Positions 7,975 through 56,827 of a stretch of DNA of 64,000 nucleotides are shown here, piece after piece. Made by a program: the position numbers and the translations under genes. Location of the stretch: positions 5,970 through 69,969 of the forward strand of contig CAYMUI010000034.1 of the NCBI GenBank assembly GCA_964393645.1. The letters are read 5' to 3'. Numbering within the stretch: position 1 is the first letter of the stretch; every line of letters begins with the position of its first letter. Under the pieces are notes generated by a model that was not told the origin of the DNA, made no database searches, and saw nothing but the letters and a program-made list of their open reading frames with translations. The DNA is from an uncultured Desulfobacterales bacterium. Lineage in GTDB: Bacteria > Desulfobacterota > DSM-4660 > Desulfatiglandales > JALVZP01.

Positions 7975-8009
7975 AAAAAAGGCAAGTCTTTAAAAAGACT
8001 TGCCTTTTT
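7975..8009. terminator. bidirectional rho-independent terminator (ends the atp operon)
   Basis: Perfect 10-bp stem GGCAAGTCTT / AAGACTTGCC (7981-7990 / 7995-8004) with a 4-nt loop. It is flanked by A6 upstream and T5 downstream, so a U-tract follows on either strand. It lies 28 nt after the atpC stop. Confidence 0.85.
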
Positions 8010-52250: not shown

Positions 52251-53183
52251 ATGAAATGTTTTCTTTACACTTTAATATTTACCTTTATCAGCTTGTCTGC
52301 TTTTGCTCTGTACGCTCAATATACCTACCAGTCAGAAACAGAGGTATGTTTAAAGGACAGACTGGGAAACTTTAAGTGGATAAGAGAAAGATTGTCCAGT
52401 GAAAAACCAAAAGAAAAGTTCTCCTTTGCTGTTATAGGAGACACAAAAAGTAGAGGTACATTTGAAGAGATAGCAGAAAGGTTAAAAAAAGAAGACCTTT
52501 CCTTTGCGGTCAATTTAGGAGACTTTGTAAGAAAAGGAACAGAGTATTACCATGCGTGGTTTAGAGCTGAATATGCTACAGAAATCAACTTCCCATTCCC
52601 TATGTTCCTGATTGTAGGAAATCACGATATAGACCCAAACGGGTTTCCCTTATCTAAATTTGAAAAGCTGTATGGACCAACTATATTTTCGTTTCCTTAT
52701 CAAGGATGCCTGTTCGTATTTCTGAGGATACTTCCAAAACCATATTCTGTAGAGCCAAGTATTAACTTTTTAAAGTCTCTTATAGCTAAGCATCCGCATC
52801 AAAAGTACAGGTACATATTTGTCTTCATGCATATTCCACCTCCTGTTTCAAAAGAAATTCGATCCAGGCAATTTGAAAAAGAAAAAGAGCTGATCAGCAC
52901 TTTAAAAAAGCTTCAACCAACTTATGTGATAGCAGGTGATTACCATGGATATGCACATTTCGAACAAGATGAGATAATATATCTGGTCTCAGGTGGAGGA
53001 GGAGCAAAATTAAAGAAAACAAAATACGGCGCCTTTCACCATGCAATTGTGATTACGGTGTCAAAATCCGGAATTTCTGAGAAATTGCTCGTAGTAAAAG
53101 AAAGAAAAGACCTTCAGGATGCAATAGAAAGATTTGCCATAACACAAGTGTATCCTATCCTTCATAGGCTCGGATTAAATTAA
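52251..53183 (+). CDS. metallophosphoesterase (calcineurin-like), membrane-anchored or secreted
   Basis: 310 aa with a hydrophobic N-terminus and motifs GDTKS, GDFV, GNHD, MHIPP, GDYHGY. Confidence 0.85.
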   Translation: MKCFLYTLIFTFISLSAFALYAQYTYQSETEVCLKDRLGNFKWIRERLSSEKPKEKFSFAVIGDTKSRGTFEEIAERLKKEDLSFAVNLGDFVRKGTEYYHAWFRAEYATEINFPFPMFLIVGNHDIDPNGFPLSKFEKLYGPTIFSFPYQGCLFVFLRILPKPYSVEPSINFLKSLIAKHPHQKYRYIFVFMHIPPPVSKEIRSRQFEKEKELISTLKKLQPTYVIAGDYHGYAHFEQDEIIYLVSGGGGAKLKKTKYGAFHHAIVITVSKSGISEKLLVVKERKDLQDAIERFAITQVYPILHRLGLN

Positions 53184-53202
53184 AATAAGGCTTAAAAAAT
53201 AA

Positions 53203-53230
53203 TTGACAAAATCTGAGTAACTAATATTAT
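53203..53230 (+). promoter_or_regulatory. sigma-70-type promoter of the rpsU leader
   Basis: TTGACA (53203-53208), a 16-nt spacer, then TATTAT (53225-53230). Confidence 0.6.
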
Positions 53231-53455
53231 ACCTTTTACCTTGAAATCCTAAACTTTCTGAGCAAGGGGGTGAGATTATTGAATTATTTCTCCGAGAGAT
53301 GCTTTTTTGCCTGCAAAGGGGGTGATAATGTGGTAAAGTTTATGTAAAATAAGTTTACACTAAGTCCCCTTATCAAAGGCAAAAAAGCATCTCATCGTTA
53401 AAATGAGATGCTTTTTTGTTTGTAAACAAAATAGAAAAAGAAAGGAGTAAAAAGA
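53231..53455 (+). promoter_or_regulatory. structured leader (candidate transcription attenuator or ribosomal-protein leader) upstream of rpsU
   Basis: The 16-nt segment GAGATGCTTTTTTGCC (53296-53311) is perfectly complementary to GGCAAAAAAGCATCTC (53378-53393). That second segment overlaps the 5' half of a terminator hairpin (53387-53417), so the two structures are mutually exclusive. Confidence 0.6.
53387..53417 (+). terminator. rho-independent terminator inside the rpsU leader
   Basis: 9-bp stem GCATCTCAT / ATGAGATGC with a 7-nt loop CGTTAAA, followed by TTTTTT (53412-53417). It lies 38 nt before the rpsU ATG. Confidence 0.8.
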
Positions 53456-53653
53456 ATGAAGGTAGTTGTAGAAAACAACCAAATAGAAAAAGCAATTAGA
53501 GAATTAAAAAAGAAACTTACAAAAGAAGGTTTTTTCTCTGAAATCAAAAGAAGAAGATTTTATGAAAAACCCAGTATGCAAAGAAAAAGGAAACAGGCAA
53601 AAGCAGCAAAAAGAAGAAAAAAGAAGGAGAAGAAAAAGAAGCTTCTTGGATAA
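53456..53653 (+). CDS. rpsU: 30S ribosomal protein S21
   Basis: 65 aa. IEKAIRELKKKLTKEGFFSEIKRRRFYEKPSMQRKRK, typical bS21, with a Lys-rich tail. AAAGGAG RBS. Confidence 0.93.
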   Translation: MKVVVENNQIEKAIRELKKKLTKEGFFSEIKRRRFYEKPSMQRKRKQAKAAKRRKKKEKKKKLLG

Positions 53654-53673
53654 AAGTTTACCAATAATTTTTC

Positions 53674-53701
53674 TTGACAAATAATTCTCTATTTTTATAA
53701 G
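53674..53701 (+). promoter_or_regulatory. sigma-70-type promoter for the cytochrome / molybdopterin-family operon
   Basis: TTGACA (53674-53679), a 16-nt spacer, then TATAAG (53696-53701). Confidence 0.5.
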
Positions 53702-53740
53702 AATCCCTCTTGAATGAGATCTGAAGGAAGAGGAAAGAAA

Positions 53741-54388
53741 ATGACCTTACTAAGTATTCCTGGCGATAAGGTAAAAGACTGGTTAGAGGGCCTGTGCTTT
53801 TTTCTTTTGGGTTTTATAGGTGCATTGATAGTTGGCTGGTTTTTATTTCCTATGGCTCTTTATTCTGAACATACTCAGCCGATAAATTTTGACCACGCTA
53901 TTCACTTAGAAAATGTAGAAGGAGACACCCTCACAGAGAAGTGTCTTTATTGCCACGAGTTTTATGAAGACGGCACATTTGCCGGTATACCTCGAATCGA
54001 GAAATGCGAAGACTGTCATGACCCTGAATCTCCGCTGGGGGATAGCTTAGAGGAGAAAAAATTTCTCACAAAATATTTAGCGCAGGGAAAAGAAATACCT
54101 TGGTATCACTACTACAAACAACCCCCATGTGTCTATTTCCCGCACATCAGCCATGTAAAGATGGCAAAAATAGCCTGTAAGACATGTCATGGAAATCATG
54201 GAACAAGCGAGTTTCTGCCGGTTTACCAAGAAAACCGCATTTCCGGATACAGTAGAAACATATGGGGAAAACATATCTCTGGTTACAAAGAACATAGCTG
54301 GGACAGAATGAAAATGGACGATTGTGCAGAGTGCCACACAAAGAAAGGCCATGAAGAGTATAACTCATGTTTCACCTGTCACAAATAA
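53741..54388 (+). CDS. membrane-anchored pentaheme cytochrome c
   Basis: Five CxxCH motifs (CLYCH, CEDCH, CKTCH, CAECH, CFTCH) after one N-terminal TM helix. I prefer ATG 53741 (GAGGAAAG RBS) over the ORF-track start 53714. Confidence 0.88.
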   Translation: MTLLSIPGDKVKDWLEGLCFFLLGFIGALIVGWFLFPMALYSEHTQPINFDHAIHLENVEGDTLTEKCLYCHEFYEDGTFAGIPRIEKCEDCHDPESPLGDSLEEKKFLTKYLAQGKEIPWYHYYKQPPCVYFPHISHVKMAKIACKTCHGNHGTSEFLPVYQENRISGYSRNIWGKHISGYKEHSWDRMKMDDCAECHTKKGHEEYNSCFTCHK

Positions 54389-54406
54389 ACTCATAGACGG
54401 GGACGA

Positions 54407-56827
54407 GTGATGAAACTGAACAGAAGAAACTTCATACTTTCTCTGGCCGGGGGTTTAATAGGAATCAATTTTACTCCGCTTCCGTGGAAACTGATGGACG
54501 ACATTGCCATATGGACTCAGAACTGGCCTTGGGTACCTGTGCCGGAAAAGGGCAGATTCCACCATGAAAAAAGTATATGCACTCTTTGTCCTGGTGGATG
54601 CGGGATAAAAGTAAGAAAAGTGGACGGCATTCATGGAGACAGGGCAGTAAAAATAGAGGGAAGAACAGATTACCCGATAAACCCGCTCGGTATCTGTCCT
54701 ATAGGCATGGGCGGTCTTCAGCTACTTTATGATGAAAGCCTCCGTTTTACCGGGCCAATGAAAAGAGGGGGCATGAGAGGAGCCGGGGAATTTGTGAATA
54801 TATCCTGGGAAAAAGGCATTTCCCTTTTAGCAGAAAAGATTCGAGATCTTAGAGCAAAAGGCAAGCCTGAAGGTATCGTTGTTATAGACGGAAACAGAAA
54901 AGGAAGCACATGCTCTTTGCTAATAGAACGGCTTGTAAAATGCATTGGAAGTCCGAACTATATCAGAATCTCTAACATGGAAGACACATACGAGATAGCT
55001 TGTAAACTTATGACCGGAAAAAGGTCTCCTCTCGCTTTTGATCTGGAAAATTCTGACTATATCTTGAGTTTTGGCTGCGCACTTATTGACGGATGGGGAT
55101 CTGCTGGCAGGATAATAAATAGCTGGAGCATGTGGCATGACTACAATCTGAAAAAAAGGCCCAAGATAGTCCAAATAGAGCCCAGATGTTCTGATACTGC
55201 GTCAAAGGCAACGGAATGGGTAGCTATAAGACCTGGTACTGAAGCTGCTCTTGCCTTGGGAATTGCTCATGTAATCGTAAAACAGGGTCTGTATGATAAG
55301 AGATTTGTGGAACAATGCTGCTTTGGTTTTAAGGACTGGGTAGGAAGTGATGGCCAGATACACACAGGATTTAAGAACATACTTTTAAAAAGGTATTCAC
55401 CCGACAGGGTGAGTAACATCACGGGAGTTCCAAAAGAGAAGATCGTCTCTTTGGCACAGGAGTTCGCAAAAGCAAAACGTCCTGTAGCAATATTTGGAAA
55501 AGATAAAGGAGAGCTGCCGGGCGGAGTCTTGGAATACATGTCTGTTATGGCACTAAATGCGCTTGTGGGAAGTGTAAACAGAATAGGCGGTCTTATAATT
55601 CAGGACGGCTTACCTTTAAAGGATCTTCCTGAGCCCGTTTTAGATAACATTGCCAAACACGGGTTAAAAAAAGAAAGACTGGATGGTGCTGGTACTGAAG
55701 AAGCACCGTTTACTCATTCTATTGCAGAGGCAATTTCTGAAAGAGCAGAAGAGATAGAATTGCTCATGATATTCTCCTCCAATCCACTGTATACCTTACC
55801 TGACGCCAAGTCTTTGAGAAAAGGGTTTGGCAAGGTACCTTTCATCGTTACATTTTCGCCTTTCTTGGATGACACTGCAATGCTGGCCGATCTTGTGCTT
55901 CCAGACCATGTATACTTAGAAAAAACAGAAGAGGTAATTTGGCCTACAGGTCTTCAGTATCCTTTTTATGGTCTTTCAAAACCTGTGGTGACTCCGATAT
56001 ACAACACCAGACATACAGGAGATGTGGTGATCCAGATTGCAAAGAAGATAGGAGGAAATGTGGCAAGATCATTCCCCTGGAGCTCTTTTGAAGATGTGGT
56101 TAAGTACAGAGTAAAGGGACTGTACGAAGCTGGAGGCTCAGTAAGATACAAACCAGACAAACCGATCTGGAAGATGATAGAAAAGGGCGAAAGACCTGAA
56201 AAGGGATACTCCGGCTTTTCAGATATGTGGAAGAAAATAAAGGACAACGGATTTTGGTTTGATCTTCCAAACTACGACAGGCATTCTTTTGCTACTCCTT
56301 CGGGTAAATTTGAGTTTTTTAGTCAGCTTCTCTTTCGTTACAAAAAGAAGATCAAGTCCATGGGGATAAAGGCAAAGGATGATGAGGCATTCATGCCTCA
56401 TTATGAATCTTCAGAATCGAGAGCTTCTGGATATGAACTAAAGATGATTCCTTATGGAATGATAAATCTTTCCAGCAGTTGGGTGCCAAGTCCTCCATTT
56501 GTTTATAAAACCATATTTGACAATCAGCTTATCAAAGAAGATTCGTTTGTAGACATCAATCCAAAACTTGCTAAAAAGCTCAAGCTCAAACAAGCAGATA
56601 AAGTAATGCTTTCTTCTCCAGCGGGCAGTATAAAAGTTAGAGTAAACATAACAGAAACAGTGCCTCCTGACTGCGTTTATGTGCCTATGGGATTTGGACA
56701 TACAGGATATGATGAATTCATAAGAGGAAAAGGAGCAAATCCCAACGAAATAATAGTTGGTGAAAAAGACCCAATAAGTGGACACAAGATATGGTGGAAC
56801 ACACCCGTAAAAATTGTTAAGCTCTGA
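54407..56827 (+). CDS. molybdopterin-oxidoreductase-family large subunit with Tat signal (Qrc/ACIII/Psr-like)
   Basis: 806 aa. Twin-arginine motif NRRNFIL; N-terminal Cys cluster CTLCPGGCG ... GICPIG; MopB-type body and C-terminal beta-barrel domain. GTG 54407 or ATG 54410 could be the start. Confidence 0.85.
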   Translation: MMKLNRRNFILSLAGGLIGINFTPLPWKLMDDIAIWTQNWPWVPVPEKGRFHHEKSICTLCPGGCGIKVRKVDGIHGDRAVKIEGRTDYPINPLGICPIGMGGLQLLYDESLRFTGPMKRGGMRGAGEFVNISWEKGISLLAEKIRDLRAKGKPEGIVVIDGNRKGSTCSLLIERLVKCIGSPNYIRISNMEDTYEIACKLMTGKRSPLAFDLENSDYILSFGCALIDGWGSAGRIINSWSMWHDYNLKKRPKIVQIEPRCSDTASKATEWVAIRPGTEAALALGIAHVIVKQGLYDKRFVEQCCFGFKDWVGSDGQIHTGFKNILLKRYSPDRVSNITGVPKEKIVSLAQEFAKAKRPVAIFGKDKGELPGGVLEYMSVMALNALVGSVNRIGGLIIQDGLPLKDLPEPVLDNIAKHGLKKERLDGAGTEEAPFTHSIAEAISERAEEIELLMIFSSNPLYTLPDAKSLRKGFGKVPFIVTFSPFLDDTAMLADLVLPDHVYLEKTEEVIWPTGLQYPFYGLSKPVVTPIYNTRHTGDVVIQIAKKIGGNVARSFPWSSFEDVVKYRVKGLYEAGGSVRYKPDKPIWKMIEKGERPEKGYSGFSDMWKKIKDNGFWFDLPNYDRHSFATPSGKFEFFSQLLFRYKKKIKSMGIKAKDDEAFMPHYESSESRASGYELKMIPYGMINLSSSWVPSPPFVYKTIFDNQLIKEDSFVDINPKLAKKLKLKQADKVMLSSPAGSIKVRVNITETVPPDCVYVPMGFGHTGYDEFIRGKGANPNEIIVGEKDPISGHKIWWNTPVKIVKL

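Follow-up and report, generated by a model that had tools for sequence, protein, structure and literature searches.

A conserved rpsU leader with competing terminator and antiterminator helices and an open reading frame over the switch strand in uncultured Desulfobacterota-type genomes

Ribosomal protein bS21 (S21) is small, late-binding and often substoichiometric, and it affects initiation that depends on the Shine-Dalgarno (SD) sequence. How cells keep bS21 in step with their ribosomes is largely unknown outside Bacteroidia. The question is raised by the leader of rpsU, the bS21 gene, in a stretch of 64,000 nucleotides (nt) from an uncultured Desulfobacterales bacterium (contig CAYMUI010000034.1, assembly GCA_964393645.1), referred to here as the window. 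By sequence comparison this leader is a previously undescribed, conserved RNA family with a solid anatomy: its parts, their conservation, two competing helices and a conserved open frame over one strand of the switch are all observed. This anatomy suggests that S21 production is probably set by how busily ribosomes translate the leader, and we lean, with modest conviction, towards a cis-acting element that sets rpsU transcription by ribosome-mediated attenuation.

Anatomy and conservation of the rpsU leader

The leader contains three pairing segments, here called strands A, B and C (Table 1). An earlier note, made from the sequence of the window alone, had placed a TTGACA-N16-TATTAT promoter at its head. 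That promoter is present, scores 11/12 and is the top promoter-like site within 52500-54500; its sequence is kept in close relatives, and its position would put the transcription start at about 53237-53238. Downstream, GAGATGCTTTTTT occurs as a direct repeat on the plus strand, at 53296 and 53405, and its reverse complement lies at 53381-53393; where 0.39 matches would be expected there are three, a number reached in 0/100 shuffles. A repeat search returned two perfect (100%) inverted repeats: one of 17 nt, 53296-53312 / 53377-53393, with arms 64 nt apart, and one of 16 nt, 53380-53395 / 53403-53418, with arms 7 nt apart. The two overlap in the central arm, 53380-53393. Perfect inverted repeats of at least 16 nt within 150 nt number three in the 64-kb window, and the leader holds two of the three.

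The 16-nt repeat makes up the window's intrinsic terminator, GCATCTCAT / ATGAGATGC followed by T6, which lies between an upstream open reading frame (ORF), uORF1, and rpsU. The 17-nt repeat closes a long irregular hairpin with an inner AAGGGG/CCCCTT helix (P2), and a 190-nt stretch of the leader folds into this form at -56.1 kcal/mol (z = -4.4). We call the closing helix, A:B, P1. The earlier note had described the direct repeat with a single complementary segment, the long hairpin, the terminator with its six U residues and the mutual exclusion of terminator and antiterminator upstream of rpsU. All of these are borne out: the repeat search and the fold reproduce the elements, strand B is the shared arm, and both helices exceed slid and shuffled controls, as described below. 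The minus strand gives as good a fold (z = -5.3), since the helices are palindromic; the minus-strand reading was rejected, as promoter, ORFs, U tract and the link to rpsU all lie on the plus strand.

Table 1. Features of the rpsU leader, in coordinates of the window
Feature	Position	Strand	Description
Promoter, sigma-70 type	53203-53230	+	TTGACA 53203-53208, N16 spacer, TATTAT 53225-53230; A-rich stretch upstream
5' hairpin (tentative)	53239-53267	+	CCTTG 53239-53243 : CAAGG 53263-53267; would mask the 5' part of SD1; from the nascent-transcript fold
SD1, extended Shine-Dalgarno	53264-53273	+	AAGGGGGTGA; complements the canonical 16S 3' tail AUCACCUCCUU with one G-U pair
uORF1	53279-53347	+	TTG 5 nt past SD1; 22 codons (MNYFSERCFFACKGGDNVVKFM); TAA 53345-53347; spans strand A
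Strand A	53296-53312	+	GAGATGCTTTTTTGCCT; 5' strand of antiterminator helix P1; upstream direct-repeat copy
SD2, extended Shine-Dalgarno	53315-53326	+	AAAGGGGGTGAT; second 10-mer copy 53316-53325; AAGGGG 53316-53321 in P2
Mini-ORF	53328-53336	+	ATG TGG TAA behind SD2, at the apex of the antiterminator hairpin; overlaps uORF1 out of frame
Inner helix P2, 3' strand	53366-53371	+	CCCCTT, anti-SD-like; pairs with AAGGGG 53316-53321
Strand B (shared)	53377-53395	+	AGGCAAAAAAGCATCTCAT; pairs with A (antiterminator) or C (terminator)
Strand C	53403-53418	+	ATGAGATGC; terminator 3' strand, T6 at 53412-53417; loop 53396-53402; downstream direct-repeat copy
SD3, ordinary Shine-Dalgarno of rpsU	53441-53447	+	AAAGGAG; -8.2 kcal/mol with the assumed canonical 16S tail
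rpsU	53456-53653	+	30S ribosomal protein bS21, 65 amino acids (aa); PF01165 in all homologues

Close relatives were gathered from S21 homologues and from a promoter-pattern scan of metagenomes, and longer, large-type leaders from a genome-contig search with S21; the family counts that follow are among the matches listed. One plan is common to at least about 37 distinct rpsU leaders, which come from uncultured genomes of Desulfobacterota type and have S21 proteins 69-98% identical. L106, L177/L082, L185, L194, L184 and L081 have in common the promoter, both extended SDs, the ORF, the three pairing segments and the terminator. Large-type leaders follow the plan at greater length and lie 240-600 nt upstream of rpsU; they come from metagenome-assembled genomes labelled Desulfatiglans, Desulfobacteraceae, Desulfobacterales or Thermodesulfobacteriota, with S21 73-85% identical. 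L207, L208 and L209 are intermediate and more distant members. The metagenome scan itself returned 117 stretches, mostly by chance, the only rpsU leaders being L106, L177, L184, L185 and L194. At every locus the leader lies directly upstream of rpsU and in the same orientation. Since it is kept although the upstream genes differ or sit on the opposite strand, the element belongs to rpsU, and its reading as the terminator of an upstream gene was ruled out. The layout drawn in the earlier note is conserved in the rpsU upstream regions of relatives, whatever the upstream gene.

Individual elements recur with a fixed geometry. Of the 32 leaders whose upstream sequence is long enough, 27 have TTGACA-N16-18-TAnnnT ahead of SD1. 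SD1, AAGG[AG]GGTGA, is found in every member over 10-11 nt and in nearly all loci is confined to the rpsU leader; a start codon follows after 5-7 nt, and uORF1 runs for 17-49 codons. Strand A reads (G)AGTGCTTTcaaACCTTC; in most large-type members its distance from the start is exactly 84 nt, and in the compact clade to which the window belongs it is 21-24 nt. SD2 is GAGGTGA-like. Strand B reads GAAGGy...GGAAAAGCATCTC, and its GCATCTC terminator core begins 36-81 nt past the uORF1 stop (364 nt in L081), with conserved stop-to-B distances of 48-51 or 63-65 nt. Strand C, GAGrTGC followed by T5-T9 in nearly all members, is succeeded by 24-360 nt, an ordinary SD and rpsU. The repeated motif is nearly invariant across the family (AAGCATCTC / GAGRTGCTTTT); within strand B, G41, C42 and A43 are invariant and TCTC nearly so (28-34 leaders). 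Counterparts of the P2 3' strand are TCACCTCTTT in L106 and GCCCTTT in L194, and the consensus of the compact clade includes a P2-like helix. Among the matches listed, distant rpsU genes (Nitrospirales, Nitrospinota, Alphaproteobacteria) lack the upstream SD and have essentially no terminators.

Some members depart from this plan in size. L207 (640-900) and L208 (170-450) carry leaders of intermediate size with a start-to-A distance of 51 nt, and in L207 the gene caller annotated a 43-aa ORF over the uORF. L081 (735-1125) has a GC-rich insert of about 330 nt in its antiterminator loop (-145.7 kcal/mol, z = -5.3, no Rfam match). The insert leaves the terminator and strands A and B intact, and A:B has ACC/GGU where the window has GCC/GGC.

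Comparison with Rfam 15 at the gathering score gave no matches for the whole window or for ten relatives, so the known RNA family that the earlier note had allowed for was not encountered there. Relaxed searches (E<=10 on 53100-53760, or E<=1) gave only weak, chance-level, terminator-shaped matches (SpF11, PyrR, Phe_leader), and Phe_leader reached 19.5 bits against a threshold of 55, over the terminator part only. The literature searched likewise yielded no S21 leader of the uORF plus terminator/antiterminator form, in line with the earlier note, whose author knew of none with the competing helices. A survey of 20 ribosomal-protein leader candidates includes no S21 leader (Eckert & Weinberg 2020, PMC7247131), and information on bS21 control elsewhere is limited, with bS21 described as late-binding and no bS21-binding motif described (PMC13374519). 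Even without a link to S21 control, this is a new, well-defined RNA leader family that is compact, has at least about 37 examples and a fixed geometry, and is suitable for Rfam.

Competing helices and an open frame over strand A

To assess the two helices, we aligned strands A, B and C of 28 large-type leaders and compared the pairing with controls in which partners were slid by 1-3 columns or shuffled. A:B was paired in 78.3% of cells, compared with 42-54% in slid alignments, and showed 22 double-sided changes; its covariation score was reached by 0/500 shuffles, and pair 16-32, for example, occurs as AU5/GC5/UG3. The terminator, B:C, was paired in 93.8% of cells compared with 42-68% when slid. 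Its pair 44-64 is UA in 11 leaders, UG in 14 and CG in 3, with double changes at 45-63 and 46-62. Covariation is modest because strand B is almost invariant, as expected of a strand that must match two partners, A and C. In a per-sequence duplex search the best partner of B was the same A motif in most members.

Folding energies place the two states close together. In the window the antiterminator conformer has -54.4 kcal/mol and the terminator conformer -48.5 kcal/mol, and blocking the uORF1 region turns the fold into a 17-bp terminator. When transcripts were cut just before C, B paired upstream in 28 of the 34 leaders, mostly exactly with A. At full length the minimum-energy fold was the terminator in 29/34, the states being mostly 1-8 kcal/mol apart. 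The early formation of A:B, followed by a preference for the terminator in the full-length transcript, is the pattern of a kinetic switch that is decided while B emerges from the polymerase.

Two unusually long SDs stand in the same leader. The 10-mer AAGGRGGTGA occurs twice in the 64 kb, and both occurrences lie in the rpsU leader (53264 and 53316). With a 16S tail that was taken as canonical, not read from these organisms, the duplexes have -16.4 kcal/mol for SD1 and -18.0 for SD2, compared with the -8.2 of the rpsU SD, which puts SD1 and SD2 among the strongest SDs in the window. They lie 192 nt and 140 nt upstream of the rpsU ATG, each serving an upstream ORF of its own and not the rpsU start. 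SDs are in ordinary use around them: many long ORFs of the window have clear ones (for example AAGGAGGTGT, GGAGGTAA and AAGGGAGG), and about 40% score at or below -6 kcal/mol compared with 24% at control positions, with a crude assignment of start codons.

The ORF behind SD1 passes over the switch. In the window, strand A makes up codons 6-12 of uORF1, and across the family the frame from the SD1-proximal start is open through strand A in 34/34 leaders, compared with 16% for the other two frames over the same span. Shuffle probabilities for the open frame were 0.07-0.46 per leader, with a product of 8e-17 over 23 divergent leaders. The encoded peptide itself is not kept. Among related leaders, substitutions in uORF1 are spread evenly over the codon positions (152:141:154), and of the codon changes 71 are synonymous and 240 non-synonymous; the peptides match no Pfam or NCBIfam entry, and no runs of regulatory codons are conserved among those of the family. 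We considered and dropped a conserved functional or arrest peptide, for which the motifs MxGS, GP, PL, ECFQTF and EVKS had been candidates: besides the even substitutions, these motifs coincide with RNA helices or SD-like segments, namely the hairpin after the start codon, the anti-SD-like CCCCU, strand A and SD2. A frame kept open around a peptide that is not conserved is expected of a regulatory leader ORF, and it appears to be the act of translating uORF1, not the peptide, that is under selection. These patterns in the sequence suggest that uORF1 is translated. The earlier note had counted about 225 nt before rpsU as untranslated; with a 22-codon ORF behind one 10-nt SD and a 2-codon mini-ORF behind the second such site, the leader is probably not.

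The start of the mini-ORF also bears a mark of selection. Its ATG stays constant as the uORF1 codon that it overlaps changes between N, H, D and Y, all of them xAU followed by G, which suggests that the start codon is itself selected. An SD2 followed by an ATG and 1-5 codons was detected in 22 of the 34 leaders, and the mini-ORF ends within a few nt of the uORF1 stop.

Further pairings lie near the start of uORF1. By-eye reading of relatives gave analogues of the window's 5' hairpin with other sequences, CCTTATC/GATAAGG in L081 and CCTTTACTT/AAGTAAGG in L194. Large-type leaders (for example L001 and L025) have a hairpin at or after the uORF1 start, GGyCGG/CCGGyC (alignment A3, columns 38-43 / 79-84), with AU, GU and GC variation. 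This hairpin could gate initiation, and its two strands account for the apparent peptide motifs 'xGS' and 'xGP'. RNAalifold on the SD1-to-A region of 16 large-type leaders gave a weak consensus of -5.3 kcal/mol, with a hairpin after the start (P0) and SD1 paired to ACCTTC, which we take as a hint only.

How the switch may be operated

Because uORF1 covers switch strand A, it is most likely ribosomes that work the switch rather than a small ligand, and free S21 need not be what acts on it. Because uORF1 always stops at least 36 nt before B, a ribosome translating it would reach A and never the terminator. Of the attenuator or riboswitch layout that the earlier note had named, the attenuator stands and the riboswitch does not, as the region from promoter to switch is a variable open frame and has no Rfam riboswitch match.

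In ribosome-mediated attenuation of this kind, the strong promoter would start a leader about 218 nt long in which strand A is transcribed first. If A is free, the emerging strand B would pair with it. A:B would close the antiterminator hairpin, burying SD2 and the mini-ORF and keeping B from C; no terminator would form, and rpsU would be transcribed. With frequent loading of 30S subunits at SD1, ribosomes would lie on A, and possibly on the apical mini-ORF, and B would stay single-stranded until C is made. The 16-17-bp terminator with its U tract would then form and transcription would end about 40 nt before rpsU. Translation of uORF1 would thus favour termination, and the rate of SD-dependent initiation would act as a negative signal for S21 synthesis. 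Since a ribosome that has reached the uORF1 stop would leave A exposed, the readout is more likely the frequency of initiation, through a train of ribosomes or a lagging one, and may be helped by ribosomes held on the mini-ORF. The model predicts that loss of SD1 or of the uORF start raises read-through, that breaking A:B lowers it, and that 30S subunits with and without bS21 load differently.

The quantity that is sensed is a more speculative matter, and bS21 occupancy of the 30S subunits is the candidate. bS21 adjoins the anti-SD, and SD-led initiation in Escherichia coli needs bS21 according to older work, in the summary given in PMC12054373. The 11-nt SD and the weak start could make uORF1 initiation dependent on bS21, and the switch would convert that dependence into rpsU transcription: S21-replete ribosomes would shut rpsU off, and ribosomes poor in S21 would not load, so that the polymerase would read through. 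We offer this sensor of ribosome composition tentatively, as a proposal that we doubt more than we trust. The use of SDs by the genes of the window points to behaviour like that of E. coli rather than that of Bacteroidia. If the sensor is real, it would be a second, independently evolved extended-SD route to bS21 stoichiometry, after the translational one of Bacteroidia, and the first ribosomal-protein feedback read out through uORF-dependent transcription attenuation.

Several observations weigh against ribosome-mediated attenuation or its link to bS21. A ribosome at the uORF1 stop leaves A uncovered, so the mechanism needs repeated loading, a lagging ribosome or blockage at the mini-ORF and apical helix. 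Should bS21-less ribosomes use the extended SD better, as they do in Bacteroidia, the same geometry would give positive feedback. The 16S 3' tail of the carrier organisms was assumed and not read, all loci come from uncultured genomes, and the ORF test took as start the first SD-proximal candidate that gave at least 15 codons, which brings some selection bias. Many of the uORF1 starts are not ATG (of 34 leaders, about 14 have ATG, 12 TTG and the remaining 8 ATA, ATT or CTG), and the mini-ORF is seen in only the 22 leaders given above. The U tract of the terminator is interrupted in L207 and L208 (TTTTCTATTTC / TCTTCTATTTC). Finally, the close relatives L083-L085 and L086 retain the promoter and SD1 without the A/B/C switch; SD1 is thus the element that persists longest, and some lineages can do without the attenuator.

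In these switchless loci (L083 2868-3045; L086 301-421), S21 is 93-95% identical, the extended SD reads AAGGGAGGTGG / AAGGAGGTGA and the leaders are 120-170 nt long.

The alternative that survives best is direct binding, in which the leader RNA would be bound by bS21 in its free form, or by some other trans-acting factor, and thereby shifted towards termination, with the SD:anti-SD-like helices or the nearly invariant AAGCAUCUC stem as sites and uORF1 secondary. Most known ribosomal-protein leaders act through a protein that binds a mimic of ribosomal RNA (rRNA), and this leader contains several SD-like / anti-SD-like pairings; these helices resemble the SD-anti-SD duplex beside bS21, for which no binding motif is defined in the literature (PMC13374519). 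Strand B is unusually conserved in sequence for a terminator, but its invariance is already explained by pairing with both A and C. The Francisella 5' untranslated region (UTR) suffices for bS21-dependent control of rpsU2 messenger RNA (mRNA), yet bS21 is late-binding, has no RNA-binding motif described, and has no evidence of binding RNA alone (both PMC13374519). Moreover, binding to SD2 or to the antiterminator helices would stabilise read-through, which is the wrong sign for feedback, and direct binding leaves without a role both the frame kept open over A in every leader and the fixed start-to-A distance. We judge it unlikely.

A second alternative keeps the ribosome and changes the sign or the signal: bS21-less ribosomes would prefer the extended SD, and a ribosome parked or stalled at SD1, SD2 or the uORF1 stop would promote read-through, for instance by keeping C from invading the paired strands or by retaining RNA polymerase in a coupled complex; or the leader would report translation capacity or stress. 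In Flavobacterium, bS21-less ribosomes do use the extended SD of rpsU (PMC9976891), but here the extended SD drives a uORF and not rpsU, and the other genes of the window use ordinary and strong SDs, unlike the SD-poor Bacteroidia. The conserved stop-to-B distances suggest a tuned spacing between ribosome and polymerase, and with the terminator as the full-length minimum-energy fold in 29/34 leaders, termination may be what needs preventing. Against this, uORF1 covers A and never B or C, and its simplest steric effect is loss of the antiterminator. This alternative seems to us improbable.

A stand-alone product, either an RNA of about 180 nt (for example a 30S sponge) or a peptide of 22-49 aa, with rpsU expressed by leaky read-through, we consider very improbable: a strong promoter and a good terminator should make the short transcript abundant, two of the window's strongest SDs are present and the L207 ORF was annotated by the gene caller, but at every locus the unit stands immediately before rpsU, in the same orientation, and nowhere else, an antiterminator that shares the terminator strand would be purposeless in a plain small RNA gene, and the peptide lacks purifying selection and any family match and shrinks from about 45 residues elsewhere to 17-22 in the window's compact clade. 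Of the stand-alone small RNA of about 180 nt that the earlier note had put forward as its other reading, what remains is that the terminated product may accumulate; its primary role as a small RNA falls, the element being strictly tied to rpsU.

Relation to known systems and neighbouring observations

The leader proposed to work by ribosome-mediated attenuation has several partial counterparts. With the amino-acid leader-peptide attenuators (trp, his, phe, thr, leu, ilv) it has in common a short ORF with an SD, competing hairpins that share a strand, a terminator before the gene and, on the model proposed here, a decision made by the position of the ribosome. Those leaders contain runs of regulatory codons and sense elongation at hungry codons; the rpsU leader has no such runs, does not conserve its peptide and probably takes its signal from the frequency of initiation at the extended SD. 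It also controls a ribosomal-protein gene, unlike the amino-acid attenuators, and has three pairing segments in place of four, so that untranslated rpsU leader RNA would read through rather than terminate.

Closest in logic are the uORF attenuators that respond to poor translation, the bmrCD and vmlR leaders of Bacillus subtilis. To our knowledge, no 11-nt SD, non-AUG start or mini-ORF has been described for either of them. As in the rpsU leader, a uORF precedes a terminator, and poorer translation of the uORF gives more read-through, as is proposed for the rpsU leader (Reilman 2014, cited in PMC12054373; PMC9226507). The bmrCD and vmlR leaders control antibiotic-resistance factors and depend on drug-stalled ribosomes and an additional anti-antiterminator layer.

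Closest in biology is the extended-SD control of Bacteroidia, minus its defining feature, an SD that serves the rpsU start. In Flavobacterium johnsoniae (McNutt et al. 2023, PMC9976891), as here, the rpsU mRNA carries a long complement of the 16S tail that is rare or unique in the genome, and its presence in both suggests that bS21 synthesis is tied to anti-SD engagement of mRNA. In Bacteroidia the extended SD stands directly before the rpsU start, control is translational and exerted by bS21-less ribosomes, and the lineage otherwise ignores SDs (PMC9976891). In the family described here it drives a uORF 190-390 nt before rpsU, an intrinsic terminator provides the readout, the rpsU SD is ordinary and neighbouring genes use SDs. 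If the S21 link holds, extended-SD sensing of ribosome composition would be a recurring solution in unrelated phyla, and uORF-driven attenuation would join the known modes of ribosomal-protein regulation.

Protein-binding leaders of ribosomal-protein genes (L20, S15, L10, S4; PMC7247131) are, like this one, conserved structured RNAs directly upstream of the gene, and the B. subtilis L20 and L10 leaders also use a choice between terminator and antiterminator. In those leaders the encoded protein binds an untranslated mimic of rRNA, whereas the rpsU leader has a conserved frame, read here as translated, over its switch strand. The Francisella tularensis rpsU2 5' UTR (Schmidt et al. 2026, PMC13374519) is another S21-gene leader that takes part in S21-dependent transcript abundance, a dependence that for the present leader is proposed. 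In that case it is the stability of the mRNA that changes, through a 61-nt region; the stem-loops are dispensable, with no uORF or terminator switch reported (PMC13374519), and no sequence relationship is apparent.

Several minor observations concern the surroundings of rpsU. The assembly index calls a 65-aa gene at 53456-53650 with no Pfam on record, and its exact sequence is absent from the protein collection, an inconsistency of bookkeeping and not of biology. No terminator is visible after the window's rpsU. A promoter-like TTGACA-N15-TATAAG lies at window 53675-53701, just past the rpsU stop and before genes for a multihaem cytochrome c and a molybdopterin oxidoreductase; its motif TTCTTGACAAAT also follows rpsU in L185 and L086.

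Two palindromes lie apart from the leader. An unrelated chance match of the promoter-pattern scan, L087 7224-7264, contains the perfect palindrome TTCACCTCCTTACTATATAATTATTATATAGTAAGGAGGTGAA, in which an SD faces an anti-SD. The third of the long perfect inverted repeats in the window, at 7976-8009, pairs AAAAAGGCAAGTCTTT with AAAGACTTGCCTTTTT across a 2-nt loop and resembles a bidirectional terminator.

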